DNA of 64,000 bases from Candidatus Levybacteria bacterium RIFCSPHIGHO2_01_FULL_37_17. Its GTDB lineage: Bacteria; Patescibacteriota; Microgenomatia; Levybacterales; UBA12049. This document shows, piece by piece, positions 196 through 51,852 of this stretch. Every line of letters starts with the position of its first letter. Position 1 is the first letter of the stretch. The translations under genes were made by a program, and so were the position numbers. The notes under the pieces are model-generated. The model worked only from the letters and a program-made list of their open reading frames with translations, did no database searches and was not told the DNA's origin. Location of the stretch: the NCBI GenBank assembly GCA_001782035.1, contig MFNL01000001.1, positions 212,648 through 276,647 on the forward strand, read 5' to 3'.

Positions 196-214
196 GATTC
201 CTTCTTACTCCCCT

Positions 215-322: not shown

Positions 323-353
323 GCGGCTCTGTGTGGCCGCCTTTTTTGTGTTT
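323..353 (+). terminator. intrinsic-terminator-like hairpin GCGGC-N8-GCCGC followed by a T-run
   Basis: The stem is 323-327/336-340 and is followed by CTTTTTTGTGTTT, with an A-tract 5' of the stem. It lies between the putative promoter and the rplC ATG at 363. Confidence 0.5.
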
Positions 354-362
354 AGAGATACT

Positions 363-2300: not shown

Positions 2301-2344
2301 ATTAATGATTAATATTCAACAGCTAATGGTTAAGATGAACAAAT

Positions 2345-3100
2345 ATGAATAAATTAAAAATTATAAAAAAGAAGCAATCCGGAAGAGACGCTGCAGGCAG
2401 AGTCGCGGTGAGACATCAAGGGGGAGAACAGAAAAGATTCGTGCGTTCTATTGATTTTAAAAGAGACAAAAAAAACATACTCGGGAAAATTATTTCTTTA
2501 GAATATGATCCGGGACGAACCGTAGATATAGCACTTGTTCAATATAGCGACGGCGAGAAAAGATATATATTATCACCGGAAGGATTAAAGTTAAATGATA
2601 GGGTAATAGCGGCAGACAGTGGAGCCGAAATAAAAACAGGCAATGCAATGCCACTTTCTGAAATGCCCATAGGGACGGTAGTTCATAATGTAGAACTTTA
2701 TCCTGGTAGGGGAGGTCAAATCGCAAGAGGAGCAGGGGCACAAGCCGTTATTGCTGCAAAAGAAGGCGGTTATATACACTTAAAGCTTCCCAGCGGAGAA
2801 GTACGAAAAATTCTGCAAAAATCTATGGCAACAATCGGAGCTTTGGGTAATGCTGATTTAAAAAACAGAGTATTTGGAAAAGCGGGAACAAAAAGGCTAA
2901 TGGGAATAAGGCCAACAGTTAGAGGAGTCGCACAAAATCCAAGGAGTCATCCTCACGGAGGAGGAGAAGGCAGATCAGGAATTGGCATGAGTCTTCCTAA
3001 GACATTTGCCGGAAGAGCAGCTGTTGGCAATACAAGAAGGCCTAAAAAATATTCAAATAAATATATTTTGCAAAAAAGAAAGAAAGGAAAACATAGCTAA
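2345..3100 (+). CDS. rplB: 50S ribosomal protein L2, N-terminally short
   Basis: L2 motifs are visible: [44 protein letters not shown], and the [10 protein letters not shown] His-containing loop. Confidence 0.9.
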
Positions 3101-3384
3101 TGGCAAGAAGTTCTAAAAAAGGTCCGTTTATAGACCCGAAATTAGTTAAAAAAGTTAATTTACAAAAACAAAACGGTGATAAGTCGGCGATAAAAACATG
3201 GAAAAGATCCTGCCAAATTCCGCCGGAATTTGTCGGACATACTTTTGCCGTACATAACGGAAGAAATTTTATAAATGTTTTTGTGGTTGAAGGAATGGTT
3301 GGACACAGGCTTGGTGAATTTGCACCAACTCGAACTTTTAGAACTCACGGAAGAGTTGTAGCAAGGGAGATATCAAAGACATAA
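3100..3384 (+). CDS. rpsS: 30S ribosomal protein S19
   Basis: The sequence [34 protein letters not shown] matches S19. Confidence 0.9.
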
Positions 3385-3385
3385 T

Positions 3386-3793
3386 ATGGAAATTATTGCA
3401 GTATCAAAATCAGTTAGAATTGCGCCTAGAAAAATAAGGCTTATCGCAGATTCGATAAGGAAACAGACATTGGAAGATGCGCTAGTTTCTCTTCCCCTTT
3501 TAAATAAAAGAGGAGCTTCGACGCTTAATAAAACCTTGAAAAGCGCAATAGCTAATGCAAAAAACAATCATAACATACATAAAGATGTGCTTTTTATAAA
3601 ATCAATTGAAATAAATGAGGCGCCTTTTTATAAAAGGTTTAGACCATCAACACGCGGACGGGTACACCCTTATAAAAGAAGAGGAACACATATCAAGATT
3701 GTTTTAGCGGATAATAAATCCGAAAAATCAAATTCGAAGCCAGAAATAAAAGAACAAATTCGAAATCCAAAAATTGAAAAGGAGACTAAATAA
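3386..3793 (+). CDS. rplV: 50S ribosomal protein L22 with a Lys-rich C-terminal tail
   Basis: The L22 fold sequence (ISPRK.R..A..IRG..) is present and the gene holds the expected operon position. Confidence 0.85.
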   Translation: MEIIAVSKSVRIAPRKIRLIADSIRKQTLEDALVSLPLLNKRGASTLNKTLKSAIANAKNNHNIHKDVLFIKSIEINEAPFYKRFRPSTRGRVHPYKRRGTHIKIVLADNKSEKSNSKPEIKEQIRNPKIEKETK

Positions 3794-3795
3794 CA

Positions 3796-4437
3796 ATGGG
3801 ACAAAAAATTAATCCAAAAATTTTAAGATTGGGTGTAGGTGTTAATTGGTCAAGCCGCTGGTTTGATGACGTTAAATATAAGGATACGCTTTTGGAGGAT
3901 TATCATATTCGCAAGGCATTAATGGATAGGTTAAAAAATGCCGGTATTGCTGAAATTGATATTGAAAGAAGTATAAACAGTATAAAAATAACTGCATACG
4001 TTTCTAAACCGGGTATGGTAATAGGGCGTGGCGGTACAGGTCTTGAGGAATTAAAAAAATTCTTGACCAACCTACTTAAAAAAAGTGGCAAGAGTCAATA
4101 CAAAATTGATACCTTGGTCGAGCCGATAAAAGACCCAAATTTAAATGCGTATCTTGTTGCAAGAAATATATCAGACCAGCTTATCAGAAGACTTCCTGCA
4201 AAAAGGGTTATTAAATCGGCTGCCGAGCGGGTTATGGGCAGTGGAGCAAAGGGAGTAAGAATAGTTTTATCCGGCAGAATCGGCGGAGCGGAAATCGGAA
4301 GAAGAGAAAAGCTACAGCAAGGGACCGTTCCTTTGTCAACCATTAGAGAAAACATAGATTATGCATCTGCCCCTTCCCTAACAAAAAAAGGATATATCGG
4401 TGTAAAAGTTTGGATACACAAAGGAGAGGAGCAATAA
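3796..4437 (+). CDS. rpsC: 30S ribosomal protein S3
   Basis: The product has a KH domain and the S3 C-terminal motifs (MGQKINP.., ..[12 protein letters not shown]..). Confidence 0.9.
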
Positions 4438-4847
4438 TGTTGGTACCAAGAAGAGCAAAATACAGAAAACAAATGAGGGGAAAAATGAAAGGCGACTCTC
4501 ATAGAGGCACAACTGTTTCTTTTGGGGACTTTGGCTTAATGAGCGAGGATACAGCTTGGGTATCATCGCGGCAAATAGAAGCTGCAAGACGAGCAATAAC
4601 TCATTATACCCAAAGAGGAGGACGTGTTTGGATTAGGATTTTTCCGGACAAACCGATAACCAAAAAACCCGCAGAAACCAGAATGGGAAGCGGAAAAGGA
4701 GATGTGGCTGGATTCGTGGCAGTGGTAAAACCCGGAAGAATTTTGTTTGAAATGGGCGGAACGACAAAAGAAATTGCAATTGAAGCGCTGCGCCTTGCAG
4801 GGCATAAATTAAATGTAAAAACAAAAGTAGTTGAAAAAGAAAGCTAA
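4437..4847 (+). CDS. rplP: 50S ribosomal protein L16
   Basis: The protein starts [15 protein letters not shown] and is preceded by the RBS GGAGAGGAG. The ORF-track start at 4410 is a spurious extension. Confidence 0.9.
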
Positions 4848-7697: not shown

Positions 7698-8026
7698 TGA
7701 AAAACAACGCGAGAGCAAAAAGAGTCAGAGTAAAAACAAAAGGAAGTGGTATCTCACCAAGGCTTTCGGTTTTTAGGTCTAATAAATTTGTTTATGCCCA
7801 ACTTATAAATGATGATAAGGGCGAAACGATCGTCTCTGCTAGTGAAAAAGAATTAAAAGCAGAAGGTAAAAAAGAGGAAAGAGCCAAAGCGTTGGGCGCC
7901 CTTATTGCGAAAAAAGCACTCGCAAAAAAAATATCAAGCGTTGTTTTTGACAGAGGCTCATATAAATATCATGGAAGAGTAAAACAAGTGGCGGAGGGGG
8001 CAAGAGAGGGGGGGCTTAAATTCTAA
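7697..8026 (+). CDS. rplR: 50S ribosomal protein L18
   Basis: The sequence RLSVFRSNK..YAQ.I.D and the C-terminal YHGRV match L18. Confidence 0.85.
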   Translation: MKNNARAKRVRVKTKGSGISPRLSVFRSNKFVYAQLINDDKGETIVSASEKELKAEGKKEERAKALGALIAKKALAKKISSVVFDRGSYKYHGRVKQVAEGAREGGLKF

Positions 8027-8526
8027 TGAACAGAAATATAAAAAATTTCGAAATGCAAAAGCGGGAAGACGGTTTTGAAGAGCGTATTGTACAAGTAAAC
8101 AGAGTTTCTAAAAAGACCCAGGGAGGAAACAAAATAGGCTTTAGTGTTCTTATGGTAGTTGGAGATAAAAACGGAAAAGTAGGAGTAGGACTTGGCAAAG
8201 GAGCAGATGTATCTCTTGCTATTAAAAAGGGAGTTGCTTTAGCAAAAAAACATGCTATTGCGGTGCCTATTGTAAATGGAACGATACCTTTTGAATTCTA
8301 TATAAAGCTAGGCGCAGCTAAAATTCTACTTAAGCCGGCTCCCAAAGGAAGCGGAGTAATCGCAGGAGGCGCTGTAAGAAGCGTAGTTTCTCTGGCAGGG
8401 ATTGAAAATATTTCATCAAAGGTTTTAGGAACGGACAACCAGGCAAGTAATGTATACGCAACGATAGAGGCTCTGAAAAGATTGGCAGTAAGACATAAGA
8501 GAGAGCTGGAAAGGAGAAATAAATGA
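8026..8526 (+). CDS. rpsE: 30S ribosomal protein S5
   Basis: The sequence ..RVSKKTQGG..F..L.VVGD.NG.VG.G.GKA.. matches the S5 dsRBD and C-terminal domain. Confidence 0.9.
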   Translation: MNRNIKNFEMQKREDGFEERIVQVNRVSKKTQGGNKIGFSVLMVVGDKNGKVGVGLGKGADVSLAIKKGVALAKKHAIAVPIVNGTIPFEFYIKLGAAKILLKPAPKGSGVIAGGAVRSVVSLAGIENISSKVLGTDNQASNVYATIEALKRLAVRHKRELERRNK

Positions 8527-8972
8527 ATTTAAATTCTTTAAGCAAGATCAAAAAAAGGGGCAAAAAAAGGCTTGGACAAGGACACGGCAGCGGAAGAGTA
8601 AAAACCGCAGGACGGGGAACTAAAGGACAGAACTCAAGAGGAAAAATTGCCTTAAGTTTTGAGGGAGGAGCACTCCCCTTGATAAAGAGACTTCCATTAA
8701 GAAGAGGCAAAGGGGAAAACAAGGCATTTAAAAAAGAACCGATTATTGTTAATATTAAACTGCTTGAGATTTTAAAAGATAAAACAGAAGTCGATTTAAA
8801 AACACTTGTCAAAGAACGTATAGTAAACGAGAAAGACGCTATTGAATACGGAATTAAAATTTTGGGGGACGGAAAAATTTCAAAGGCTTTAATTATTAAA
8901 CTTCCTATTTCAAAACAAGCAGCAAAAAAAATCGAAAAAGCAGGCGGCAGAATCGAATCTAGTCCCAAATAA
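8523..8972 (+). CDS. rplO: 50S ribosomal protein L15
   Basis: The Gly/Arg-rich N-terminus (GHGSGRVKTAGRGTKGQNSRG) matches L15. The gene directly overlaps the rpsE stop, so no rpmD lies between them. Confidence 0.85.
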   Translation: MNLNSLSKIKKRGKKRLGQGHGSGRVKTAGRGTKGQNSRGKIALSFEGGALPLIKRLPLRRGKGENKAFKKEPIIVNIKLLEILKDKTEVDLKTLVKERIVNEKDAIEYGIKILGDGKISKALIIKLPISKQAAKKIEKAGGRIESSPK

Positions 8973-26603: not shown

Positions 26604-29474
26604 TCAATTATAAGCAGAGCAGAGCATCTTAAACTCGCAGGTTTTGCATATAATATTTCCGCTGCATTTAAAGTCGCTTTTTTCTATTTCTTCTATTTTT
26701 GCAATGAGCTCATCTTCCAAAACGTCTAAGTTCTTTTTTTCAAACTCTAATGATTTTTTGGTGTTTGCTTCTAAAAAGTACAAGGTTAAAATAATATCTT
26801 TCGGGTTTTTGCCCGCAAGGAGATCTTTAACTCTTGTAGCCGCAAGAGCATAAATGGCAAGTTGAAGTTGATGAGCTTTATCTGCTTTAGGATTATCAAT
26901 TCCGGTTTTGTAGTCGATAATCTCAATGCCATCTCCTCTGGGATCGATTCTGTCAATTTTACCAAACACTTTCACGCCGTTTTTAAGGACAAAATTGAAA
27001 GGCTGCTCAATTGCAAGAGGCTTGATAAAAGGACTACCTTCAGACTTATAAAACGCATCAATCATCTTTTGGGCTTGCGAAAACCTTTCTAGCTCGTGCT
27101 TTTTGCTATCGTAGCCTTCTTTTTCCCAGTTTTCTTCTAAAAGTTTTCCAAGTCGACCAAAAGTTGGTTTTTGATCCTCAATTATTAATTTATAAAATTC
27201 ATAAAACGTTTTGTGCATTGAAATTCCGAAAGATAAAACACCGGACTGCGGGGTAGGTAAGCTAAGAATAGCCTTGGCTTTATAATGAAGCGGGCAAATA
27301 TCAAACATTTGCAAATTGGAGTATGTGATATAGTCAATTTTAAGGGGCAATTTTTTTTGGCTTTTTTCTTCAACATTTTGATAAGGTGCAAGTACTTCAA
27401 GAAGCGACATCTGTTGGTTTTTTTCCAGTACTACCTCGTACTTTTTTAAGTCGGGGAGTGCTTCATAAACAAAGGGGGATAATTTTTTTTGTCTTTTCCC
27501 TGCTCCGTAATAATCTGCAGCTGTAAAATAAAGCTTTTCTTTAGCCCTTGTCATTCCAACATAAAAAAGCCTCCTTTCTTCCTCCAGGTGAAAATCCGTC
27601 ACAGCAGGAAGTTTTTCTTTAATTAATGCTTCCGGAAGGGGTATTTTGTCGGAGCGTTCCCTAGTAGGAAAACGGTCTGTTACGAGATTTGCTAAAAATA
27701 CAACTGGGAATTCAAGTCCCTTGCTTGAGTGAATCGTAAGAATGTTTACAGCGTTTGTCTCTCTTAAATCTATATCTGCCGCCAAAGGGCTGTCTCCCAT
27801 TTGCATCATTAAAGTAAGCCATTCCACCAGTGTAAAAATATTTGCATCTGAGCGTTCGGTTTCAAAATTTTTTATTCTGTCAAAAAACTTTGCAATATTT
27901 TGCACTCTTTTTTCGTCTTGCACCGATTCCGTATTTTGAAGGCTGTCATATATTTTTGTTTCCACCAAAAAATCGTATAAAAGCTGTCCGGCTTGATCTT
28001 TTCTACTTCTTCGCAAATGCTCTTCGACCATCTCCTTGAAATTTTTAAAAGTAATGACTGTTTTATCGCTTAAAAATTGTAAATTGGATTGGCTTATTGC
28101 TTCGAAAAGACTAAAGTTTCTTTTCTTTGCATAATTTAAAATATAGTTTAGCTCAACGTAAGATATCCCAAAAATTTCCATTGACAAAACCCTAAACAGA
28201 GAAACAGAATCTGAAAGATTAGTTAAAAACGTTAAATAAGCAATTAAGTCTTTAATCTCTTCTTGCTGGAAGAGATAACCGGGCCCCAAAAATTGAAAGG
28301 GAATTCTGTTTCTAAATAGTGCAGCCGTAATGGTTGAAGAATGGCTGTTTGCCCTAAGAAGAATTGCGATGTCTCTGTAGCTGTACCCCTCTTTTATTAG
28401 TGTTTTAACAGTTTGGGTGATTTTGTCGGCTTCATCCTCGGATCTAGGTTCATGAAGTAAATTTATTTTTTCATTTTTTTTGTCCGAGTGGCTCTTGAGT
28501 CTTTTTACAATATTTTCTACGACTTCTAGTCTATTAGGATTATTATTCTGTATAAGTTTGTATGAGGCATCCAAAATTTCCTGAGTTGACCTGTAATTAT
28601 CTGTAAGAGTAACAATTTTTGTTTTTGGAAAATTTTTTTTAAACTGCAATACGTTTGACACCGCGGCACCCCTGAATCTATATATAGACTGGTCGTCATC
28701 CGCTACTACATTGATATTTTCATCATCACCCGCAAGAAGAATAGCTAATTCATTCTGGGCATAGTTTGTATCTTGGAATTCATCAACAAGTATATACTTA
28801 AATTGGTTTTGATAGGTTTTTAAAACATGCGGCCTAATTCTAAAAAGAAGAAGCGTATTTGAAATTAAATCCGCAAAATCCATTATAGAGTGTTTGGTTT
28901 TCAACTCTTCGTATTTTAGAAAAGAATTTGCAAGTTCTAGGTATTGGGCATTTTCTCCCATCTTTTTTTGTTTTTTTGCCCATCCTAAGTACTGACTTGG
29001 ACTTATGTCTTCATCTTTTAGTCTTGAAAAATGTGTAAGAAGCGCTTCTAAAAATTTATTAGGATTTCCAAGAGGGCGAAATATTTGCAGTCCCAAATCA
29101 AATATATTTTGCCTTAAAAGTAAAATGGATTCGGACTCTGAAATTAACTTATAATTTGGATCAAGACCAATTAAATGTGCTTCGTTTCTCAAAATCCTGT
29201 CACAAAACGAATGGAAAGTATGAATCCAAAGGTTGGTATAGCCGTAGGGAAGCAAAACATCAACTCTGTCCTGCATTTGATGAGCTGCTTTTTCCGTAAA
29301 GGTCAAAGCTAATATTTGATCGGGTGAGGTATTCCTGTCAACTATTAAATGATTTATCCTTTGCGTAATAACTGTAGTTTTTCCCGTTCCTGCTCCCGCG
29401 ATTATTAAAAGAGGTCCACTGCCATGTTTTACAGCTTCAAGCTGATTTTTATCCAAACTAAGGCTATCGTTCAT
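26604..29474 (-). CDS. UvrD/PcrA-type SF1 helicase fused to a C-terminal PD-(D/E)xK nuclease with Cas4/AddB-like Fe-S cysteines
   Basis: The N-terminus has Walker A AGAGTGKTTV and UvrD motifs (DEFQDTN, ..YRSTQEIL..). The C-terminus has ..ICPLHY.., GKIDRID, EIIDYKTG, QLAIYA and C-x5-C-x2-C-x5-C (CSGNIICKTCEFKMLC). Confidence 0.8.
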   Translation of the reverse strand: MNDSLSLDKNQLEAVKHGSGPLLIIAGAGTGKTTVITQRINHLIVDRNTSPDQILALTFTEKAAHQMQDRVDVLLPYGYTNLWIHTFHSFCDRILRNEAHLIGLDPNYKLISESESILLLRQNIFDLGLQIFRPLGNPNKFLEALLTHFSRLKDEDISPSQYLGWAKKQKKMGENAQYLELANSFLKYEELKTKHSIMDFADLISNTLLLFRIRPHVLKTYQNQFKYILVDEFQDTNYAQNELAILLAGDDENINVVADDDQSIYRFRGAAVSNVLQFKKNFPKTKIVTLTDNYRSTQEILDASYKLIQNNNPNRLEVVENIVKRLKSHSDKKNEKINLLHEPRSEDEADKITQTVKTLIKEGYSYRDIAILLRANSHSSTITAALFRNRIPFQFLGPGYLFQQEEIKDLIAYLTFLTNLSDSVSLFRVLSMEIFGISYVELNYILNYAKKRNFSLFEAISQSNLQFLSDKTVITFKNFKEMVEEHLRRSRKDQAGQLLYDFLVETKIYDSLQNTESVQDEKRVQNIAKFFDRIKNFETERSDANIFTLVEWLTLMMQMGDSPLAADIDLRETNAVNILTIHSSKGLEFPVVFLANLVTDRFPTRERSDKIPLPEALIKEKLPAVTDFHLEEERRLFYVGMTRAKEKLYFTAADYYGAGKRQKKLSPFVYEALPDLKKYEVVLEKNQQMSLLEVLAPYQNVEEKSQKKLPLKIDYITYSNLQMFDICPLHYKAKAILSLPTPQSGVLSFGISMHKTFYEFYKLIIEDQKPTFGRLGKLLEENWEKEGYDSKKHELERFSQAQKMIDAFYKSEGSPFIKPLAIEQPFNFVLKNGVKVFGKIDRIDPRGDGIEIIDYKTGIDNPKADKAHQLQLAIYALAATRVKDLLAGKNPKDIILTLYFLEANTKKSLEFEKKNLDVLEDELIAKIEEIEKSDFKCSGNIICKTCEFKMLCSAYN

Positions 29475-36772: not shown

Positions 36773-37240
36773 ATGGATAAAAAAATATTTTTAACAAAGG
36801 AGGGGTTTGCGGAGCTCAAAAAAGAATTCACACAGCTCAATGATATAAGAAGACCGGAAGTTTTGGAAAGAGTTTCTCAAGCAAGAAGTATGGGGGACCT
36901 TTCCGAGAACGCAGAATATGCTGCAGCAAGAGAAGAGCTTTCTTTTATTGACGGAAGGATAGATGAACTCGAAGAATTGATTGCCCAAGCTGTACTAATT
37001 CAGGAGGATCACGCAAAAGGAAATCATGTTGTAAAATTGGGTTCTAAAGTTTCCGTTAACATTAAAGGGAAAAAAGAGGAATTTATGGTTGTTGGGGAAT
37101 GGGAAGCCGACCCAAATGAAAAAAAAATATCACACGAGTCCCCTTTGGGCAAAGCAATAATTGGCAAAAAAGTTGGAGAGAAAGTCGAAGTAGAAGCTCC
37201 TGCAGGTACCGTTGTTTACACAATTACCTCTGTAAGCTAG
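36773..37240 (+). CDS. greA: transcription elongation factor GreA
   Basis: The sequence MDKKIFLTKEGFAELKKE..RRPEV..RVSQARSMGDLSENAEY matches GreA. The ORF-track start at 36749 lies inside the terminator. Confidence 0.85.
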   Translation: MDKKIFLTKEGFAELKKEFTQLNDIRRPEVLERVSQARSMGDLSENAEYAAAREELSFIDGRIDELEELIAQAVLIQEDHAKGNHVVKLGSKVSVNIKGKKEEFMVVGEWEADPNEKKISHESPLGKAIIGKKVGEKVEVEAPAGTVVYTITSVS

Positions 37241-37249
37241 AATAAGAGA

Positions 37250-38449: not shown

Positions 38450-39396
38450 AAAAAATACTGGTAACTGGCGCTTTTGGACAAATAGGATCAGAACTTGTTC
38501 CGGCTCTGCAAAAAAAATTTGGAGATGATCAAGTTGTTGCGATGGGGCATGAGCGCATAGGCCAAAACTTCAAAGGCATTATAGAAAAGGCAGATATAAG
38601 AGATAAAGAGTCAATTTTGTCCATAGTAAAAAAATATGATGTCGGTGAAATTTATCATCTTGTTTCGCTTCTTTCGGTAGGAGGAGAAAAGGATCCGAAA
38701 GTTACTTGGGAAATAAATGTCGGAGGTCTAAAAAATATTCTAGAGCTTGGAGTAGAGTTTGGACTTAAAATTTTTTGGCCTAGCTCAATTGCCGCATTCG
38801 GACCTACAACTCCGAGAAATAACACTCCACAGGAAACTATTTTGGAGCCAACTACAATGTATGGAGTAACAAAAGTTACGGGAGAAAATCTCTGCCGCTA
38901 TTTTAATATTAAATACGGACTTGATGTTAGATCTGTTCGCTATCCCGGAATAATTTCCTGGAAAACACCGCCGAGTGCCGGAACAACGGAATATACAGTA
39001 GCTATGCTATATGACGGTGTACAAGGAAAAGGAAATACTTGTTGGCTTGGACCTGATACGATGCTGCCCATGATGTATGTTAATGACGCCATAAAAGCAA
39101 CGGTAGACTTAATGGATACTCCGGTTTTAAAAATTAAACTTAGAGGAAGCTACAACCTTGCTGCTGTAAGTTTTACTGCAAAACAGTGGGAAGAAGCAAT
39201 TGGGAAACATATACCCGATTTAAAAGTTTCCTATAAACCCGATGAACGGCAAAAAATAGCAGATTCCTGGCCAAAAACAATTGATGATTCTAAAGCTAGA
39301 GCCGATTGGGGATGGGAACATGAGTATGATTTAGAAAAAATGACTAAAGAAATGGTAGATAATCTTCAAAGAAAATTAACCTCAAAAGCTGTATAA
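38446..39396 (+). CDS. tdh: L-threonine 3-dehydrogenase, NAD-dependent epimerase/dehydratase (extended SDR) type
   Basis: The Rossmann motif reads ILVTGAFGQIGSEL and the YxxxK reads ..MYGVTKV.. The gene overlaps the kbl stop. Confidence 0.65.
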   Translation: MKKILVTGAFGQIGSELVPALQKKFGDDQVVAMGHERIGQNFKGIIEKADIRDKESILSIVKKYDVGEIYHLVSLLSVGGEKDPKVTWEINVGGLKNILELGVEFGLKIFWPSSIAAFGPTTPRNNTPQETILEPTTMYGVTKVTGENLCRYFNIKYGLDVRSVRYPGIISWKTPPSAGTTEYTVAMLYDGVQGKGNTCWLGPDTMLPMMYVNDAIKATVDLMDTPVLKIKLRGSYNLAAVSFTAKQWEEAIGKHIPDLKVSYKPDERQKIADSWPKTIDDSKARADWGWEHEYDLEKMTKEMVDNLQRKLTSKAV

Positions 39397-39403
39397 TATC
39401 TTC

Positions 39404-40888
39404 ATGTTTTGGGCAGATAAATTATTAGAAAAAATTGAGGGAAAACAAGTTATAAATGACTCTTTTACTCCTTCGGGCATTGTTCATATGGGATCGTTAA
39501 AAGGCCCTGTAATTCACGATACTCTGGCAAAAGTTTTAAGAGAGAAAAAAGTTGATACAGAATTCCGTTATGGATTCGATGATATGGATCCGATTGATGG
39601 ATTACCAGCGAATTTAATGGAGTCACACGGAAAATACATGGGACAGCCTCTTTTTATGGCGGAAGGGCTTGAAAAAGGAGAAACATTTGGAGGACACTTT
39701 TCAAAAATGATGGAAGGCTTACTCAATCAATTAGATATAAAACCTGATTTTCTTTATAGAACAAGTGTTTTGTACAAAGAGGGAGTATTCAATAAAGCGA
39801 TAAAAATAGTTCTAGACGATGTAGATAAAGTTAGAAAAGTTTATGAAGATATGTACAAGAAAAAACTTTCAGATACCTGGTATCCTTTTCAAGTAATTTG
39901 CCCAAACTGCAAAAAATTAGGGACTACAAAAGTAATTAATTGGGACGGAGAAAAGGTTGAATATGAATGTCTTCCCAATTTAGTTATCTGGGCTAAAGGC
40001 TGCGGGCAAAAAGGAAAGATTTCTCCATATGATGGAAAAGGAAAAATGGTATGGAAAGTAGAATGGGCAGCAAAATGGTTTACTTTTGGCGTAACAATTG
40101 AGGGAGCTGGAAAAGACCATGCATCAGCAGGCGGATCTTACGATATAGCAATGGAGCTTGTTGAAAAAGTGTTCAAAACAAAAAAACCTCTAAAACTTGC
40201 TTATGAATTTTTTCTCTCCGGAGGCAAAAAAATGTCATCTTCGAAAGGCTTGGGTATAACAGGGGATGAGCTTTTAAAGGTGGTAGGTTCGGAAAGGGCA
40301 AGATTTTTGATGATAAAAACAGAGCCGAATGTTGCGGTTGAGTTTAGTCCAAAAGGCACAGATGGAATCCCTGCGCTATTCGATCAATACCAGTCCTTTG
40401 CCAATTCAAAAGACAAAGATCATCAAAGAGTAATTCAGTTTTCTAAAACTGCTCAAAAAGAAAATTTGCCGGATATTCGCTTTTCAACGATTGCGCAACT
40501 TGCTCAAATGCCAAATGCACAAGATAAAATTAAAAAGTATGAAGAATGGGCAGAATATGCAAAGGTTTGGGTAGAAAAATACGCGCCGGAGTCTGAAAAA
40601 TTCACAATTCAAAAAGAATTGCCAAAAGAAGTTAAAAATTTATCAAAAGAACAAAAAAAATTGTTGTCAAAAATTTCAAGTGAGATATTCAAAGATTTAC
40701 ATGCGGAAGAATTTCAAACTAAAATTTACGAATTAGGAAAAGAATTGGGTTTAAATGGAAAGCAAACATTTTCAGCCATTTATAATTCACTTCTTGGAAA
40801 AGATCACGGTCCAAAAGCAGCATGGTTAATTCTTTCTTTGGATAAAGATTTCGTTAAAAAAAGATTTGAAGAAGTTTCAAATGATTAA
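39404..40888 (+). CDS. lysK: lysyl-tRNA synthetase, class I (archaeal/spirochaete type)
   Basis: The HIGH-variant reads PSGIVHMGSLKG, ..FRYGFDDMDPIDGLP.. is present, the KMSKS-variant reads KKMSSSKG, and the C-terminal helical anticodon domain is present. Confidence 0.8.
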   Translation: MFWADKLLEKIEGKQVINDSFTPSGIVHMGSLKGPVIHDTLAKVLREKKVDTEFRYGFDDMDPIDGLPANLMESHGKYMGQPLFMAEGLEKGETFGGHFSKMMEGLLNQLDIKPDFLYRTSVLYKEGVFNKAIKIVLDDVDKVRKVYEDMYKKKLSDTWYPFQVICPNCKKLGTTKVINWDGEKVEYECLPNLVIWAKGCGQKGKISPYDGKGKMVWKVEWAAKWFTFGVTIEGAGKDHASAGGSYDIAMELVEKVFKTKKPLKLAYEFFLSGGKKMSSSKGLGITGDELLKVVGSERARFLMIKTEPNVAVEFSPKGTDGIPALFDQYQSFANSKDKDHQRVIQFSKTAQKENLPDIRFSTIAQLAQMPNAQDKIKKYEEWAEYAKVWVEKYAPESEKFTIQKELPKEVKNLSKEQKKLLSKISSEIFKDLHAEEFQTKIYELGKELGLNGKQTFSAIYNSLLGKDHGPKAAWLILSLDKDFVKKRFEEVSND

Positions 40889-41435
40889 AAAATTAATTTT
40901 TGCTACATCTCATAAAGGAAAAGTTGGAGAAGCGCAAGGCATATTGGATATTCCGTTGGAAATTGCCGATATAGAAGTTGATGAAGTACAGAGTATGGAT
41001 CTTGAATATGTAGCAAGAAAAAAGGTTGAAGAGGTTTTTAAAATTGTTCAACAACCTGTGATCATTGATGATGTTGGGCTCAAAATAAGAGCATGGAATG
41101 ATTTCCCCGGTCCATTAGTGAAATTTCTACAGAGAATTGTAGGCAATAAGAAAGTAGTTGAGCTTTTAAAAGATGAACAAAATAGAGAAGTTATAGTTCA
41201 GAGTGCCATTGGATTCCATGATGGAACAAAATCACATGTATTCATCGGAGAAGTTAAGGGAATAATAGCAACAGAGGAAAGAGGGACAGAAGGTTACGGA
41301 TTCGACCCAATAATAATTCCAGATGGACAAGATAAAACATATGCCGAAATGGGACTAGAGGGGAAAAATAAACTTTCTCACAGAAGAAAGGCCTTTGATA
41401 AATTAAAGGAACATTTAGATAGTCAAGGAAAATAA
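40881..41435 (+). CDS. rdgB: non-canonical purine NTP pyrophosphatase (RdgB/HAM1, ITPase)
   Basis: The sequence ..LIFATSHKGKVGE.., ..FPGPL.KF.. and ..GYGFDPI..P.G...T.AEM....KN..SHR.KA match the family. Confidence 0.8.
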   Translation: MIKKLIFATSHKGKVGEAQGILDIPLEIADIEVDEVQSMDLEYVARKKVEEVFKIVQQPVIIDDVGLKIRAWNDFPGPLVKFLQRIVGNKKVVELLKDEQNREVIVQSAIGFHDGTKSHVFIGEVKGIIATEERGTEGYGFDPIIIPDGQDKTYAEMGLEGKNKLSHRRKAFDKLKEHLDSQGK

Positions 41436-41454
41436 AAAGGAATATAATTAAATT

Positions 41455-42693
41455 ATGATTGACATTAAATTATTACGGGAAAATCCGCAGAAATTCCAGC
41501 AATCCGCCAAGGATAAAGGTATAAAGATTGATGTCGAACATGTTTTAGAGCTTGATAATAAATTCAGGGGGCTTGATTCAATGGCTCAAAAATTACGAGA
41601 AGAAAGAAACAGAGCATCTAGCGAAAAAAATATTGAAAAAGGGAAAGAAATAAAATTAAAGCTTGAAAAGCAGGAAAATGCACTTAGAGCAGTGGAGCAA
41701 GAATTAAAAGAATGGTTATACAAAATTCCAAACCCTGCAAAAAAAGATGTAAAAGTCGGCAAAGATGAAAGAGAAAACCAGGTTGTTAAAACATTTGGAA
41801 AAATTACAAAGTTTGATTTTAAACCAAAAGACCATTTGGATCTTGGAACAGCTTTGGGGATAATAGATATAGAATCTGCCGCAAAAGTTTCAGGAACAAG
41901 ATTTGCTTATTTAAAAAATGATGGTGTTTTACTAGAACTTGCGCTTATACAGTTCGCATTCGATATCCTTATTAAAGAAGGATTCGAGCCGATAATTCCA
42001 CCGGTTCTTATAAAAAAAGAGATAACAGAAGGCCTAGGGTATTGGCAAGCTGGGGGGCATGAAGACTATTTTTGGATTAACAGCGGAGAGGGCGAAGGAT
42101 ATTATCTAATAGGAACAGCAGAGCACTCAATAATTCCAATGTATAAAGATAAAATTCTAAATGGCAAAGAATTGCCCAAAAGAATAGTGGCTTTTTCGTC
42201 AGCATTCAGGAGAGAGGCGGGAAGTTATGGAAAGGATACTAGAGGAATATTGCGGGTTCACCAATTTGACAAAATTGAGATGGTCTCATTAGTAAAAGAG
42301 GGTGAAGATGATAAGGAACAAGATTATCTTATTTCTTTGGAAGAAAAATTTTTCCGGCTTCTTGAGATTCCTTATCAAATCCTAAAAATGTGCACTGCAG
42401 ATACGGGCTTTGTACAAGCTAGAAAGTACGATTTAGAAGCATGGATTCCTAGTGAAAACAAATTCAGGGAAATGACATCTGCTTCAACTGTTACGGATTT
42501 TCAATCAAGAAGATTAAATATTAAATACCAACAAGGCAATGAAAAAAAATACGCTTATGTATTAAATGCAACAGGGCTTGCAATTGGAAGAACGATTATT
42601 GCAATTTTAGAAAATTACCAACAAATTGATGGAAGCGTAAAAGTTCCAAAAGTTCTACAAAAATATTTAGGTAAAAGTGTAATAAAACAGTAA
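41455..42693 (+). CDS. serS: seryl-tRNA synthetase
   Basis: The N-terminal coiled-coil arm and class II motifs 2 and 3 (..FRREAGS.GKDTRGI.RVHQF.K.E.., ..GLAIGRT..A.LEN) are present. Confidence 0.9.
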   Translation: MIDIKLLRENPQKFQQSAKDKGIKIDVEHVLELDNKFRGLDSMAQKLREERNRASSEKNIEKGKEIKLKLEKQENALRAVEQELKEWLYKIPNPAKKDVKVGKDERENQVVKTFGKITKFDFKPKDHLDLGTALGIIDIESAAKVSGTRFAYLKNDGVLLELALIQFAFDILIKEGFEPIIPPVLIKKEITEGLGYWQAGGHEDYFWINSGEGEGYYLIGTAEHSIIPMYKDKILNGKELPKRIVAFSSAFRREAGSYGKDTRGILRVHQFDKIEMVSLVKEGEDDKEQDYLISLEEKFFRLLEIPYQILKMCTADTGFVQARKYDLEAWIPSENKFREMTSASTVTDFQSRRLNIKYQQGNEKKYAYVLNATGLAIGRTIIAILENYQQIDGSVKVPKVLQKYLGKSVIKQ

Positions 42694-42762
42694 TAATTCT
42701 TCTTTCTATTTTTTGCTTGTAAATTCAATCTAAATTATTGAATTCGAGGCTGACGAGATCTC

Positions 42763-42791
42763 TTGACAAAGTTAAATAAAATATCCATTAT
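42763..42791 (+). promoter_or_regulatory. putative promoter (TTGACA, then a weak -10 CATTAT/ATTATA) inside the cassette
   Basis: A perfect -35 hexamer sits at 42763-42768 and the -10 region at 42786-42791 is AT-rich. The -10 assignment is uncertain. Confidence 0.3.
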
Positions 42792-42836
42792 AAACTCAAT
42801 TATACTTTTACGAACGTAAAGGGGGGTGAGCTGAAA

Positions 42837-42875
42837 ATGGCAAAGAAGAAAAAGAAGTCCAAGAAAAGAAAGTAA
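42837..42875 (+). CDS. 12-codon poly-lysine micro-ORF (MAKKKKKSKKRK) with a strong Shine-Dalgarno
   Basis: The RBS AAAGGGGGGTGA (42818-42829) is followed by an ATG 8-10 nt downstream. The codons are AAG/AAA/AGA and the stop is TAA. The ORF is too short for the ORF track. Confidence 0.4.
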   Translation: MAKKKKKSKKRK

Positions 42876-42921
42876 TTGATAAGCTATTTGGAGCATTATC
42901 ACTTACCAATTGATCAATTGT

Positions 42922-42952
42922 AATCCCTCACATTTAATGTGAGGGATTTTCT
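42922..42952 (+). terminator. intrinsic terminator AATCCCTCACAT-tta-ATGTGAGGGATT + TTCT
   Basis: A 12-bp perfect stem (42922-42933/42937-42948) with a GC-rich core is followed by a U-tract. Confidence 0.55.
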
Positions 42953-43000
42953 ACATACTTTATTTTGGCAGTCAGCCTCGAATTGTGATAAAATTAATTA

Positions 43001-45682
43001 ATGATTGGGTTTTTAAACAAATTCTTCGATACTAATGAAAAAGAAATAAACAAATTGACTCCTATTGTTGAAAAAATAAATTTATACACGGAGGATTTTA
43101 AAAAATTAAAATTATCCGACTTTTCTAAAAAAACAGAAGACTTTAAAAATAAAATTTCCAGAGGAGAGCCACTAGAAACTATTATCCCACAGGCTTTCGC
43201 TCTGGTTCGGGAAGCATCCAGAAGAACAACAGGACTCGTACATTTTGACGTACAGCTAATGGCGGGCATTGCACTTTCTATGGGAAAAATTTCAGAGCAA
43301 AAAACAGGAGAAGGAAAAACGCTTTCTGCAACACCCGCTTTATATTTGCATGCCTTAACAGGAAAAAATGTTCATCTTGTAACAGTTAATGATTATTTAG
43401 CAAGAAGAGATGCGGGATGGATGGGTCCTATATTTAGCCTTCTGGGAATTAGCGTCTCTTCAATTATTAATGAAGAGTCTTTTATTTTCGACCCAACATT
43501 TGAGGCGAAAGATGTTGGGGACAGTCGTCTTTTACATCTAAAGCCAATAACAAGAAAAGAGGCTTATGAAGCGGATATTGTTTACGGAATAAATTCCGAG
43601 TTCGGGTTCGATTATTTAAGAGACAATATGTCACAGGATAAAAGCCAGCTCGTGCAAAGAGGGTTTTACTTCGCAATAGTAGATGAGGTCGACTCAGTTT
43701 TAATAGATGAAGCAAGAACCCCCCATATTATATCAGCACCTGACGAAGCTCCGACCCAAAAATATTACGAATATGCAAAACTTGTTGAGAAATTATCGTC
43801 CGAGACAGACTATAAAATAGATGAGAAGTTGCGTACTGCTCATCTTACAGAACACGGTATTGGAAAAATAGAAAAACTTTACGGGATTGAAAACATTTAT
43901 GAGAAGGATTTTGATACCGTTTATCATTTGGAGGCCGCATTAAAAGCAAGAACCTTATTCCATAAGGAAAAGGACTATATTGTAAAAGATGGTGAAGTAA
44001 TTCTAGTTGATGAATTTACAGGCCGACTCATGGTCGGAAGAAGGCTTTCTGAAGGCCTTCACCAGGCAATTGAAGCAAAAGAAAACGTTCCGATACAAAG
44101 AGAATCCAAAACTCTAGCTACAGTTTCTTTGCAGAATTATTTCAGGCAATACGATCTCCTTGCAGGAATGACAGGAACAGCAGTAACAGAAGCGGAAGAA
44201 TTCAACAAAATTTATAAATTAGATGTTGTCGTAGTTCCAACGCATAGACAAATGATAAGAAAAGACTTATCTGATGCAATTTATAAAACCGCAAGAGCAA
44301 AATATAGCGCAGTAGCTTCCGAAATTGAAAAAGCTCATAAAACTGGACAGCCTGTTTTAGTTGGAACCACCTCGATTGATAAAAATGAAATAATCGCCGA
44401 GCTTTTAAGACGAAGGGGAATAAAACATGAAGTGTTAAATGCGAAAAACCACGAGAGGGAAGCAGAAATTATCGCAAAAGCAGGAGAAAAAGGCGCGGTA
44501 ACCGTTGCAACTAACATGGCTGGAAGAGGAGTCGATATTATTTTAGGCGGTGACACTCCTAAAAATACAGATGGAACCGAAAACAAAAGTTCAAAAGAAT
44601 GGGAAACGTGGCAAAAACGACACGACGAAGTTGTTGAACTCGGAGGGTTATATGTTATAGGAACCGAAAGACATGAGTCAAGAAGAATTGATAACCAGCT
44701 GCGAGGAAGGTCTGGCAGGCAAGGGGATCCGGGAATGTCGCAATTTTTTGTTGGACTTGATGATGAAATCATGAGGCTTTTTGGCGGAGAAACAATATCT
44801 TCTCTTATGACTCGCTTTAATATGCCCGAAGACGTTCCACTGCAGCATCCTTTAGTTTCGCGCGCAATTGAGCAAGCACAAGTAAAAGTCGAAGGATATA
44901 ACTTTGATATTAGAAAGCACTTAGTGGAATATGATGATGTTTTAAATAAACAGAGGGAAATAATTTACTCAAGAAGACTTTCTGCATTAGGTATGGATGA
45001 AAAATCAAAAGAATTAAAAGATGAAATTAAAAATAAAATTCATGAGAATATCGCACAAACTATTATTATGTACTCCGAAAATTTTCAGGATAGTAAATCG
45101 CCATCGTTGCAAATCGCAGAAAAATTTGCAACGGTTATTCCATTCGATGAGCAATCCATTGGACAGCTCGCCAAACAATTAGAACAGTTAGGCTCAGTAG
45201 ATCAAAAAACAGAATTTCTTACAAAAATAGCCGACGATTTGTACGAAAACAAAGAAAAAGAATTAGGAGAAAGTTTAATGAGGCAAGTTGAAAAATTCGT
45301 TGTACTTTCGGTAATTGATAATTTATGGGTAGACCATTTGGACGCAATTGATAATTTAAGGCAAGGGATAGGACTTAGAGGATACGGCCAAAAAGACCCG
45401 TTAGTTGAGTATAAAAACGAAGCATTTTCTATGTTTGATACCCTTATAAACACAGTGGAGGATGAAATTGTACATAGAGTTTATAAAATCCATGTACACC
45501 AAGAGGCACCTTTAGAGAGCCCTCTTAACAGACCTGGAGTTGTTGAAAATGCAGCGGGTTCTAATATAGTTCCTGAAGTATCACCGCAAGAACAAGCTAA
45601 AGCCAAAAAGAGACTTGGAAGAAACGATCCCTGCTGGTGTGGAAGCGGAAAAAAATACAAAAAATGTCACTGGCCTAATTAA
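43001..45682 (+). CDS. secA: preprotein translocase ATPase SecA
   Basis: The DEAD motor motifs and the C-terminal zinc-binding CWCGSGKKYKKCH are present. Confidence 0.95.
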   Translation: MIGFLNKFFDTNEKEINKLTPIVEKINLYTEDFKKLKLSDFSKKTEDFKNKISRGEPLETIIPQAFALVREASRRTTGLVHFDVQLMAGIALSMGKISEQKTGEGKTLSATPALYLHALTGKNVHLVTVNDYLARRDAGWMGPIFSLLGISVSSIINEESFIFDPTFEAKDVGDSRLLHLKPITRKEAYEADIVYGINSEFGFDYLRDNMSQDKSQLVQRGFYFAIVDEVDSVLIDEARTPHIISAPDEAPTQKYYEYAKLVEKLSSETDYKIDEKLRTAHLTEHGIGKIEKLYGIENIYEKDFDTVYHLEAALKARTLFHKEKDYIVKDGEVILVDEFTGRLMVGRRLSEGLHQAIEAKENVPIQRESKTLATVSLQNYFRQYDLLAGMTGTAVTEAEEFNKIYKLDVVVVPTHRQMIRKDLSDAIYKTARAKYSAVASEIEKAHKTGQPVLVGTTSIDKNEIIAELLRRRGIKHEVLNAKNHEREAEIIAKAGEKGAVTVATNMAGRGVDIILGGDTPKNTDGTENKSSKEWETWQKRHDEVVELGGLYVIGTERHESRRIDNQLRGRSGRQGDPGMSQFFVGLDDEIMRLFGGETISSLMTRFNMPEDVPLQHPLVSRAIEQAQVKVEGYNFDIRKHLVEYDDVLNKQREIIYSRRLSALGMDEKSKELKDEIKNKIHENIAQTIIMYSENFQDSKSPSLQIAEKFATVIPFDEQSIGQLAKQLEQLGSVDQKTEFLTKIADDLYENKEKELGESLMRQVEKFVVLSVIDNLWVDHLDAIDNLRQGIGLRGYGQKDPLVEYKNEAFSMFDTLINTVEDEIVHRVYKIHVHQEAPLESPLNRPGVVENAAGSNIVPEVSPQEQAKAKKRLGRNDPCWCGSGKKYKKCHWPN

Positions 45683-50558: not shown

Positions 50559-51826
50559 TGAAGAAAATTAAGAGATTCCTAAAGCTTCTTGGACCGGGAT
50601 TTATTACAGGGGCCTCAGACGATGATCCATCCGGAATCGGTACTTATGCACAAACCGGCGCAGTATTCGGATACAGCCAGGCTTGGACAGCACTTTTTTC
50701 TTTTCCCTTTATGACGGTAATTCAGGAAATATGCGGTAGGGTAGGAATGGTAACCGGAAAAGGAATTGCGAGTGTGATAAGAATACATTATTCAAGAAGA
50801 ATCCTTTTCGGAATTGTTGCGCTTCTTTTTTTTGCCAATACAGTGAATGTCGGAGCAGACTTAGGTGCTATGGCGGCTTCAGGCCAACTTTTGTTCGGAA
50901 TCCCATTCTATCTTTGGCTTTTTTTAATTGCTGCGATCACCTTACTGCTTGAAATATTTGTTCCCTATCCTCTCTATGCTAGATTTCTTAAATATGTAAC
51001 TCTTTCCCTTTTTGCTTATATAATTGTTGCGTTTGTCGTAAAACAACCATGGAGAGAAATTGCTATAAGCACTATTATTCCATCATTCACGTTTTCAAAG
51101 GAATATTTAATGAACATTGTGGCGATATTAGGTACAACAATTTCTGCTTATTTATTTTTCTGGCAAGCAGACCAAGAAGCAGAAGAGGATTTTGTTCAAG
51201 GAAGGCTCAGAACTTACGGGAAAGGAATACCGAAAATCACAACGAAAGATATACGCTCTATGAGATGGGATACAACAATAGGCATGTTTTTTTCTAACAT
51301 TGTTATGTTTTTTATCATTATTACAACAGCTTCAACTCTTTTTGCAAAGGGGATAACTAATATTGAAACTGCAACCCAGGCAGCTGAGGCACTAAGACCA
51401 TTGGCAGGAGATTTCACATACATCCTTTTTGCCGCGGGAATTATGGGAACTGGTTTTCTTGCAATACCAATTCTTGCAGGTTCTGCTTCATATGCACTTT
51501 CGGAAAGCGTGGGATGGAAAGCCGGCTTAAATTATAAATTTAAACAAGCGCACGCTTTCTATTTAGTAATTGCTCTCTCAACAGTTTTAGGAATTCTAAT
51601 TAATTTTATTGGCATAAAACCTTTTCAAATGCTTTATTACACCGCAATTCTAAATGGCTTCATCTCTCCTCCTATAATGATAATGCTTATGCTTGCTTCG
51701 AGTAACAGAAAAATTATGGGAGAGCATATAAATAATCGTTATGTAAACATTGTAGGCTGGTTTATTACAATAGTCATGTCTTTTGCATCTATTGCGCTTC
51801 TTTTATCCATCTTAGGTTTGTACTAA
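50558..51826 (+). CDS. mntH: NRAMP-family divalent metal (Mn2+/Fe2+) transporter
   Basis: The sequence ..GPGFITGASDDDPSGIGTY.QTGA.FGY.. is the NRAMP signature. The product has multiple TM segments. Confidence 0.8.
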   Translation: MKKIKRFLKLLGPGFITGASDDDPSGIGTYAQTGAVFGYSQAWTALFSFPFMTVIQEICGRVGMVTGKGIASVIRIHYSRRILFGIVALLFFANTVNVGADLGAMAASGQLLFGIPFYLWLFLIAAITLLLEIFVPYPLYARFLKYVTLSLFAYIIVAFVVKQPWREIAISTIIPSFTFSKEYLMNIVAILGTTISAYLFFWQADQEAEEDFVQGRLRTYGKGIPKITTKDIRSMRWDTTIGMFFSNIVMFFIIITTASTLFAKGITNIETATQAAEALRPLAGDFTYILFAAGIMGTGFLAIPILAGSASYALSESVGWKAGLNYKFKQAHAFYLVIALSTVLGILINFIGIKPFQMLYYTAILNGFISPPIMIMLMLASSNRKIMGEHINNRYVNIVGWFITIVMSFASIALLLSILGLY

Positions 51827-51852
51827 AAAGCGACCTCTGTTAAAATCAGCCT

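Follow-up and report, generated by a model that had tools for sequence, protein, structure and literature searches.

Regulatory peptides of the SecM type are long, carry a signal or transmembrane segment together with a specific arrest motif, and open a hairpin that masks the Shine-Dalgarno (SD) sequence downstream on the same mRNA. Unannotated tiny ribosomal proteins have been found only by cryo-electron microscopy, among them bS22 and bL38 in Borrelia, in which an extension of uL30 fills the pocket of bL37 (PMC10618245). Within the candidate phyla radiation (CPR) uL30 is reported to be absent at its canonical place in all members, and the parcubacterial uS19 bears an Ala/Lys-rich tail (PMC9297842). 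Iterated AAA reduces protein output via ribosome sliding in E. coli (PMC4363877). Here we describe the spacer between serS and secA in a 64-kb stretch of Candidatus Levybacteria bacterium RIFCSPHIGHO2_01_FULL_37_17 (contig MFNL01000001.1; this whole stretch is called the window in the following), which contains a lysine-rich micro-open reading frame (micro-ORF) of only 12 codons.

A first-pass annotation had described the 307-bp spacer, a perfect inverted repeat, a consensus TTGACA, a strong SD sequence and a terminator, all of which were found again on reading the sequence. The micro-ORF, too, is present, poly-Lys and preceded by a strong SD sequence, with its coordinates corrected to 42837–42875. 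As one possibility, the arrangement had been suggested to be a leader of secA comparable to secM. From a comparison with 80 related GTDB loci (689 kb; by its SecA, whose closest GTDB matches show 71–78% identity, the window groups with Levybacteria within the Microgenomates, CPR/Patescibacteria) and with metagenome contigs we favour, with a probability of roughly 0.55, the reading that the spacer holds a stand-alone, highly expressed micro-gene, the selected product of which would be a small polycation acting in trans. A search of the literature brought up no earlier account of a micro-ORF of this poly-lysine kind, neither from CPR nor from the neighbourhood of secA.

Results

The gene serS (Pfam tRNA-synt_2b and Seryl_tRNA_N) ends at 42693 with the stop codon TAA at 42691–42693, and the ATG of secA stands at 43001, leaving the spacer of 307 bp between them. 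Promoters and leaderless starts are, here and below, consensus-based predictions. The following features were located:

42726 to 42734, forward strand: upstream block CAATCTAAA, about 30 nt 5′ of the −35 element; most of the 53 GTDB units carry CARYCYAAA at the corresponding place
42741 to 42754, no strand: inverted-repeat arm 1, AATTCGAGGCTGAC, a promoter-proximal motif copy with core TTCGAGGC at 42743–42750
42763 to 42791, forward strand: micro-gene promoter TTGACA-17 nt-CATTAT with the −35 at 42763–42768, present in nearly all relatives as TTGACA-17-CAnnAT
42818 to 42829, forward strand: SD sequence AAAGGGGGGTGA, 7 nt 5′ of the ATG, read from the sequence
42837 to 42875, forward strand: micro-ORF with ATG at 42837, 12 codons plus TAA (42873–42875), peptide MAKKKKKSKKRK
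42873 to 42905, forward strand: hairpin H1 from folding and covariation, stop codon included, loop UAUUUGGA
42905 to 42922, forward strand: hairpin H2, ACCAATTGATCAATTGTA, a degenerate copy of the family palindrome ACCAATTGATCAATTGGT, forming a 5-bp hairpin in the window
42922 to 42952, forward strand: intrinsic terminator from folding of the window, 12–13-bp GC-rich stem AATCCCTCACATT / AATGTGAGGGATT (42922–42948), then UUUU
42965 to 42994, forward strand: secA promoter TTGGCA-18 nt-TGaTAAAAT, its end 6 nt 5′ of the ATG, missed in the first-pass annotation
42971 to 42984, no strand: inverted-repeat arm 2, the second motif copy, within the spacer of the secA promoter
43001 to 45682, forward strand: secA, 893 amino acids (aa); Pfam SecA_DEAD, SecA_PP_bind, P-loop_SecA, SecA_SW and SEC-C

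Transcription of the micro-gene is predicted to start near 42798.

Conservation of the micro-ORF in relatives, on which the first-pass annotation had made its proposal depend, was confirmed and is accompanied by tight linkage to secA. A search for K/R-rich ORFs behind a strong SD sequence on both strands of the 689 kb of related loci revealed the unit in 53 of the 80 GTDB loci and in one place only, 75–266 nt 5′ of secA and in the orientation of that gene. Metagenomes were scanned with a pattern made of the palindrome of the 3′ untranslated region (3′UTR), three K/R codons and a stop, from which secA information was excluded and which detects canonical units only; at least 120 contigs, of groundwater or peat origin, matched. 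The counts below over 172 units, 83 peptides, 97 3′UTRs, 164 secA loci and 112 informative loci are counts among the matches listed, and with many loci related to one another they do not represent independent events. Among the matches listed, secA lies 85–290 nt (once 484 nt) 3′ of the micro-ORF stop in 111 metagenome contigs, and 8 contigs end too early to show the downstream gene. One locus (L158, about 100–4783) has an intact unit followed by a Bro-N-like gene and a large helicase-like ORF, not by secA; this stretch of at least 4.7 kb resembles a mobile or defence island inserted 3′ of the terminator.

The ORFs are 9–34 codons long with a mode of 9 and encode 83 distinct peptides, in which Lys and Arg account for 815 of 1142 residues (K 728, A 169, R 87, T 67, V 44, P 20, S 12, G 6, H 5). 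N, W, E and D occur once each, N and W in L131, a frameshifted contig with evident indels; L, I, F, M, Y and C are absent. Residue 2 is Ala or Pro (codon GCN or CCN), and Arg replaces Lys freely, for example in MARKRAKRRKRR and MAKKRKKRR. The reading frame is conserved and the +2 frame of the same DNA would encode mostly Glu, which indicates that positive charge is conserved and not purine richness as such.

Codon usage within this frame is unusual. In the micro-ORFs 60% of the Lys codons are AAG; the corresponding share is 20% in the secA genes of these genomes (odds ratio 6.2 by Fisher test, p = 5e-67, phylogeny not corrected for). With a share of 18% in ribosomal-protein genes, AAG is hence not the preferred codon there. 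The longest A-run does not exceed 8 in any of the 53 GTDB units, whereas genome-typical codons would give a median of 15 for a K7 tract. Both the AAG bias and the short A-runs point towards faithful peptide synthesis being favoured over a slippery or stalling tract. The idea that the poly-Lys stretch serves as a sensing or stalling tract finds no support in the free exchange of Lys for Arg and in the avoidance of long A-runs.

Expression signals are found on both sides of the ORF. An exact match of 9–12 nt to AAGGAGGTGATC (canonical 16S 3′ end assumed) is present in 125 of the 172 units, and GGTGA stands 5–9 nt 5′ of the start in 172. Start codons are ATG (165), GTG (5) and TTG (2). Leaders measure 25–130 nt, an A-rich stretch precedes the micro-gene promoter across the units, and a GC-rich hairpin followed by a T-run is found in 53 of 53 GTDB units, with stem sequences that vary freely.

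Seven variants of 27–34 aa were looked up for exact identity among about 15 billion predicted proteins, and none was present. Scans of viral contigs (IMG/VR) gave no unit; palindrome matches lay inside phage coding genes, and poly-K matches were N-termini of longer proteins. A Leu/Phe-rich antisense ORF, considered as a possible type I toxin, was rejected as its length, frame and start are not conserved.

Two observations concern the 5′ side of the micro-ORF. In L001 (2799–2845), L005, L006, L008 and L010, the 5′UTR contains a hairpin, absent in the window, the 5′ arm of which (GUUCACCUUUA) resembles an anti-SD sequence; in the same 5′UTR of close relatives the UUGCC at the extreme 5′ end is complementary to a GGCAA by the start codon and could pair with it. 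The hairpin of this group could possibly be a second translational control element. In the window, a pyrimidine tract 3′ of the serS stop (CTTCTTTCTATTTTTTGC, 42699–42716) is 83% complementary to the first Lys codons (42840–42857). As the tract lies upstream of the micro-gene promoter, pairing is possible only in RNA reading through from serS; the tract is not clearly conserved in relatives.

A separate promoter signature precedes secA. In 134 of 164 loci a −10-like hexamer has its end 4–12 nt (mode 6, 66 loci) 5′ of the first secA codon, and 123 of these 134 bear a TG extension. Several of the remaining loci have a mis-set start, as in L024 and L035, which show TAAGAT or TAAAAT followed by 6 nt and ATGGCATTTTC. 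The secA of the window has the features of a leaderless gene, TGaTAAAAT followed by 6 nt and ATG without an SD sequence, and its mRNA is predicted to be leaderless on these grounds. Similar spacing is common in the window: in 17 of 74 genes a −10-like hexamer ends exactly 6–8 nt before the start, other distances being rare, with examples at 39404, 41455, 43001, 50150 (reverse strand), 51853 and 58368. Internal genes of the ribosomal-protein operon use SD sequences. The spacing in these 17 genes suggests that first genes of transcription units are typically leaderless, secA included.

Several leaderless promoters share a CCTC 3–8 nt upstream of the TG-extended −10 (ACCTCAAAAGCTGTATAAT, TACCTCTGTAAGCTAGAAT, GACCTCTGTTAAAAT and GCCTCGAATTGTGATAAAAT; window 39375–39403, 37220–37249, 51825–51852 and 42975–42994), which may be a lineage-specific promoter element replacing the canonical −35. 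Insertions of about 60–110 nt were observed 5′ of the secA ATG, 3′ of the terminator or of the −10, in L078 (about 2925–3000), L192, L023, L025, L046, L050, L053 and L170. Their terminal inverted repeats of 11–12 nt, for example TTGTCATTCTGA...TCAGGATGACAA, together with internal hairpins of the type TCATCCCGAACTTGATTCGGGATC make them look similar to miniature inverted-repeat transposable elements (MITEs) or repetitive extragenic palindromic elements. In those loci a leaderless secA would become leadered.

The 3′UTR between ORF and terminator is conserved in sequence and predicted structure. UUGGUAA follows directly 3′ of the stop with a spacing of 0–3 nt; then come a variable apical part, often with the loop AUUUGGAG, the segment UUACCAAUUGAUCARUUGGUAA, and the terminator. 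The 18-nt palindrome ACCAATTGATCAATTGGT (at most 1 mismatch) is found in 47 of 53 units, 14–56 nt 3′ of the stop, and nowhere else in the 689 kb. Two helices can form. In H1, at about −13 kcal/mol, the stop codon plus UUGGUAAGC is paired with GCAUUACCAAUUG, and H2, at about −7 kcal/mol, is the palindrome hairpin. The H1 fold was obtained for 67 of 97 distinct 3′UTRs; with the first 15 nt blocked, which mimics a ribosome at the stop codon, H2 was obtained in 83, and a switch is predicted in 58. In the alignment used for covariation (A2), 91% of the cells of H1 are paired and 3 pairs show compensatory double changes; the covariation score exceeds those of 500 out of 500 shuffles and of all slid registers. 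One of these three is the change of the window itself, from GGUAA/UUACC to GAUAA/UUAUC. Folding gave z-scores of −4.9 and −5.5 against shuffles, with z = −4.9 for the 3′UTR plus terminator of the window. The three-way complementarity of the segments explains the conservation of the 3′UTR without a protein site.

The switch is not universal. In the clade of the window a 10-nt duplication, UUACCAAUUA, lets H1 and H2 coexist and thereby abolishes the switch. H1 and H2 are both missing from L036 and L039, in which the promoter, the SD sequence, the ORF and the terminator are retained, and four loci (L032, L046, L050 and L069) have hairpins of other sequence at the site of the palindrome. From these cases the ORF and its expression signals appear as the core of the unit and the switch as an accessory part. 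H1 and H2 compete with each other; the terminator stem is overlapped by neither and forms in all folds, and they are therefore not an antiterminator. Pairing of the free palindrome half, the SD sequence or the 5′UTR with a terminator arm was searched for, and no consistent complementarity emerged.

Two coding interpretations of the 3′UTR were discarded. Read-through of the stop is ruled out by the variation of 0–3 nt in the spacing between stop and UUGGUAA, and a second small ORF (UUG AUC AGU UGG UAA) behind the GGAG of the H1 loop is not conserved in the window or in L001. At gathering as well as at permissive thresholds Rfam 15 yielded no family, whether for the spacer of the window or for the 15 related loci scanned. 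No convincing trans target of the H1 loop or of the palindrome, the 5′ end of lysK included, was found in the 64-kb window. At another place of the window (27511–27611, reverse strand) an Rfam match just above threshold was noted to n00280 ("C. difficile sRNA included into helicase gene"); it lies in a UvrD/PD-(D/E)XK helicase-nuclease gene (26604–29474) and is probably conserved coding sequence, not a small RNA (sRNA).

Taken against these data, the attenuator or secM-like model of the first-pass annotation fails each defining test run. A leader-peptide attenuator is at odds with an own secA −10 located 3′ of the terminator in 134 of 164 loci and with the lack of antiterminator pairing. The presence of a secA promoter 3′ of the terminator, here predicted and not mapped on transcripts, corresponds to what the annotation had named as refuting leader control. 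The analogy to secM breaks down since the peptide has no hydrophobic segment for Sec to sense, secA has no SD sequence and the terminator separates the two genes. Control of secA by a leader is further disfavoured by relatives that lack the unit and keep the same secA promoter.

The inverted repeat was analyzed separately. Its 14-nt arms are exactly complementary (100%) and are the only copies with 0–2 mismatches in the 64-kb window; we estimate the chance of a perfect 14-nt inverted repeat in 307 bp at about 1e-4 to 1e-3 (about 4e4 position pairs × 4^-14). The relatives show a shorter motif, T[TC]GA[AG]GC (TTYGARGC), which begins 18–19 nt 5′ of the −35 in 48 of 53 units. In 16 of 53 loci a second copy stands 3′ of the terminator and 5′ of secA, in direct orientation in 10 and inverted in 6, compared to 0.6 expected from shuffles, and the motif is also found in secA promoters of loci without the micro-gene. 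Its presence in either orientation rules out a conserved RNA stem as well as paired ends of a transposon. The long-range RNA stem that had been suggested for the two arms is thus not upheld, as the arms are promoter-proximal motif copies of variable orientation in relatives. TTYGARGC is more likely a DNA-level element associated with promoters, perhaps a shared regulator site, and its extension to 14 identical nt is specific to the lineage of the window. A role as a general regulon motif was ruled out for the window, where it is not enriched (7 matches against 4.7 expected).

In a neighbour-joining tree of SecA the unit-bearing loci form a single clade. L017, L031 and L033 are nested within it without the unit, pointing towards secondary loss; they retain the secA promoter including a TTGAAGC or GCCTCAA motif. 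Adjacency of serS and secA also occurs in lineages that never carried the unit, so that synteny is here not in itself evidence of a functional link. As to the linkage with secA, the best explanation is that the unit arose within the ancient serS–secA spacer of a compact genome; co-regulation of secA and micro-gene via the shared TTYGARGC motif is possible.

Concerning the neighbourhood, the cluster lysK – Ham1/RdgB – serS – micro-gene – secA (window 39404–42693) is kept in many relatives. It places a class-I lysyl-tRNA synthetase gene (PF01921) two positions upstream of the micro-gene, which may be coincidence. None of the loci examined showed an hpf gene upstream of secA; hpf–secA synteny is known from Firmicutes and Actinobacteria. 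In a sister clade without the micro-gene, a gene for a protein of 208–264 aa fills the slot directly upstream of secA, which is the serS–secA slot where serS is present (L044:2199–2993, L045:2320–2988, L047:2337–2993, L051:2314–2955, L053:2091–2717 and L075:1728–2414, in L075 as the second gene upstream). Best matches of these proteins are polyamine aminopropyltransferase/spermidine synthase (PF01564, 24–48 bits; NCBIfam scores far below equivalog cut-offs), and the aspartate of GGGDG seems to be absent as read from the sequences. It is possible that an oligolysine gene took the position of a polyamine-type gene, which we keep as a hint only.

Discussion

According to the favoured reading, the micro-gene would be transcribed from its sigma-70-type promoter into an RNA of about 150–190 nt that ends before secA, and secA would be transcribed separately from the extended −10 promoter right 3′ of the terminator, giving a leaderless mRNA. 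The peptide, (Met)-Ala/Pro-(Lys/Arg)n, the net charge of which lies at about +7 to +18, would bind a polyanion in trans. As target, rRNA or the ribosome is our best guess by analogy with bL37, bS22, Thx and eL41, DNA and the anionic membrane being speculative alternatives. On the RNA itself, the stop codon and UUGGUAA would pair with UUACCAAUUG in the H1 state, and the same UUACCAAUUG would pair with the downstream CAAUUGGUAA in the H2 state. Folding and covariation predict that a ribosome on the stop codon flips H1 to H2. The switch may affect mRNA stability or ribosome release, with the terminator stem untouched.

Conservation of the unit, constraint on its coding frame, its expression signals, its own terminator and the separate secA promoter signature are evident at the level of sequence; that the peptide accumulates, acts in trans and binds a target is what we infer from them, and this distance is the first of several points that weigh against the reading. 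Synonymous-site identity is high, with AAG AAA AAG AAG AAG AAG AAA identical in many species, so the conservation of these sites may also reflect constraint at the RNA level. The reading does not explain the purpose of the H1/H2 switch. Complementarity of the SD sequence was scored against a canonical 16S 3′ end, which is assumed for Levybacteria. Variants of 20–30 aa gave no match in Pfam, NCBIfam or PDB, where such short low-complexity queries cannot score significantly. The unit has been lost in three or four lineages and is thus dispensable there or relocated, relocated copies having been sought in the window and the 689 kb of loci. Finally, the terminator abuts the secA −10, and the adjacency to secA is near-absolute (111 of 112 informative metagenome loci) and mechanistically unexplained.

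A more specific version of the micro-gene reading is put forward tentatively, as we consider it more doubtful than the general one. A gene of 9 codons, among the shortest conserved bacterial genes known, would make an oligolysine (AK7–AK12; longer K/A/T-rich forms in basal lineages) as an abundant polycation, either a micro ribosomal protein in an rRNA pocket of ribosomes without uL30 or a protamine- or polyamine-like counter-ion of RNA or DNA in ultra-small cells. The gene resembling polyamine aminopropyltransferase in the same slot of the sister clade is a positional hint in this direction. In the window, uL15 follows directly after uS5 and overlaps with it (8026–8972), with no uL30 between them.

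The best of the rival explanations, although an unlikely one, regards the whole unit as a cis device for secA, by regulated read-through, by hand-off of RNA polymerase, terminated after a start at a very strong promoter, to the neighbouring −35-less secA promoter or by insulation of that promoter, with translation of poly-Lys setting the RNA conformation by the terminator. It draws its strength from position: in each of the 53 GTDB units, as in 111 of the 112 metagenome loci that extend far enough, secA lies 3′ of the unit and in its orientation, and genes have been inserted between serS and the unit and none between the unit and secA. Moreover, the T-run of the terminator runs into TGnTAAAAT in many loci (for example L013, L014, L019, L020 and L040), the TTYGARGC motif is common to both promoters, and a translation-sensitive H1/H2 switch is placed 0–6 nt 5′ of the terminator. 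However, with its −10 at leaderless distance and no SD sequence, secA should be translated poorly from a read-through RNA; the terminator stem is overlapped by neither helix, and terminators are strong and universal. The same secA promoter is present where the unit is absent, and in L158 the unit is separated from secA. A cis device also leaves the conserved charge, the Ala or Pro at residue 2 and the reading frame unexplained.

Somewhat less likely still is a function of the RNA itself, as a dual-function or translation-reporting sRNA in which the poly-Lys ORF senses Lys-tRNA supply or translation rate and picks H1, with the loop AUUUGGAG exposed and the 3′ half of the palindrome free, or H2, thereby controlling trans pairing or protein binding. 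The 3′UTR is indeed far more conserved than neutral DNA would be at 60–78% SecA identity, H1 covaries, and three-way complementarity makes the helices mutually exclusive in most lineages. Conserved synonymous sites in the ORF, with AAG as the rarer Lys codon, and the class-I lysyl-tRNA synthetase gene in the conserved cluster two genes upstream fit this reading as well. Yet the occurrence of Arg in place of Lys in many lineages (MARKRAKRRKRR) means that sensing of Lys-tRNA is not conserved. L036 and L039 do without both helices, the clade of the window has lost the switch, and neither a complementary target in the window nor an Rfam family was found.

We regard it as improbable that a transcription factor controlling secA has its DNA operators in the palindrome, in the TTYGARGC repeats or in the two together, with the ORF being incidental. 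The 18-bp palindrome is perfect and conserved in sequence, its CCAACTG... and ...CAGTTGG variants are mirror images, which would suit a symmetric site in DNA, and TTYGARGC is found in either orientation near the secA −10, even without the unit. Against an operator, the palindrome always stands between stop and terminator, also at a distance of more than 150 nt from the secA promoter, and is absent from the secA promoters of loci without the unit. Hairpins of different sequence replace it in L032, L046, L050 and L069, and its A-to-G variants retain G·U pairing. The strand shared by H1 and H2 accounts for the conservation, and the coding signal of the ORF is not incidental.

A MITE-like miniature mobile element bounded by terminal inverted repeats, as which the perfect 14-nt repeat flanking the cassette in the window had made it appear, is refuted in practice by the single copy in 64 kb (with the motif at 7 matches against 4.7 expected), by the one orthologous site in about 170 genomes among the matches listed and none elsewhere in the 689 kb, by flanking motif copies in relatives that match over about 8 nt only and are direct as often as inverted (downstream arm direct in 10, inverted in 6), and by a presence pattern on the SecA tree that fits one gain and few losses.

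The stand-alone micro-gene thus remains the reading we prefer. Should the peptide be produced, an entire candidate order of ultra-small bacteria would possess a highly expressed, unannotated oligolysine gene, of a size at which gene callers overlook ORFs. The lower size limit of conserved bacterial genes would be extended, a candidate component would be added to the already unusual CPR ribosome or nucleoid, and a natural example would be available of how poly-Lys can be encoded without slippery A-tracks. The analysis also corrects the tempting mis-annotation as a secM-like leader of secA, documents leaderless promoters and the junction of terminator and promoter in Levybacteria, and describes the H1/H2 switch as a new conserved RNA element.

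Comparison with Known Systems

Poly(A) tracks and attenuators with iterated AAA share the run of Lys codons with the micro-ORFs (PMC4363877, PMC4552401). With A-runs of at most 8 and 60% AAG, the micro-ORFs are the opposite of a sliding or stalling track.

The attenuators trpL, hisL, thrL and pheL likewise combine a short ORF bearing a run of one residue with a terminator within about 50 nt and alternative pairings that depend on the ribosome. In contrast to them, the terminator stem lies outside the alternative pairings here, the downstream gene has its own promoter, Lys and Arg are interchangeable and secA is unrelated to lysine. Similar to secM–secA of E. coli, MifM and VemP, the unit has an upstream ORF beside a secretion gene, the translation status of which could in principle be read via RNA structure. 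It differs from these by peptides of 9–34 aa without hydrophobic residues, by a transcript that is terminated and by a secA without SD sequence.

The dual-function sRNAs SgrS/SgrT, RNAIII/hld and SR1/SR1P correspond in size (about 150–190 nt), in their own promoter and terminator and in the combination of a small ORF with a conserved structured segment. Unlike in these sRNAs, no base-pairing target was found in the 64-kb window, and it is the ORF and not the structured part that is universally retained.

The closest resemblance in product is to the tiny ribosomal proteins bL37 (24 aa, mycobacteria), bS22 (33 aa), Thx (26 aa) and eL41 (25 aa), which are likewise very short, consist of Lys and Arg to more than half and start with Met-Ala-Lys. 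The micro-peptides fall within the size and composition of this group (at most 35 aa, more than 50% Lys/Arg). bL37, MAKRGRKKRDRKHSKANHGKRPNA (PDB 5o60 chain 3), begins with MAKRGRKKRDRK and may be set beside MAKKRKKKR in Levybacteria. Homology was not detected in Pfam, NCBIfam or PDB, where peptides this short could hardly score, and association with the ribosome is a proposal by analogy. Many members are 9 residues of near-pure Lys and fall below every known ribosomal protein in both length and complexity, and the variation in length from 9 to 34 aa would be unusual for a fixed rRNA pocket. Similar to the micro-gene, the tiny ribosomal proteins have the expression signals of highly expressed genes.

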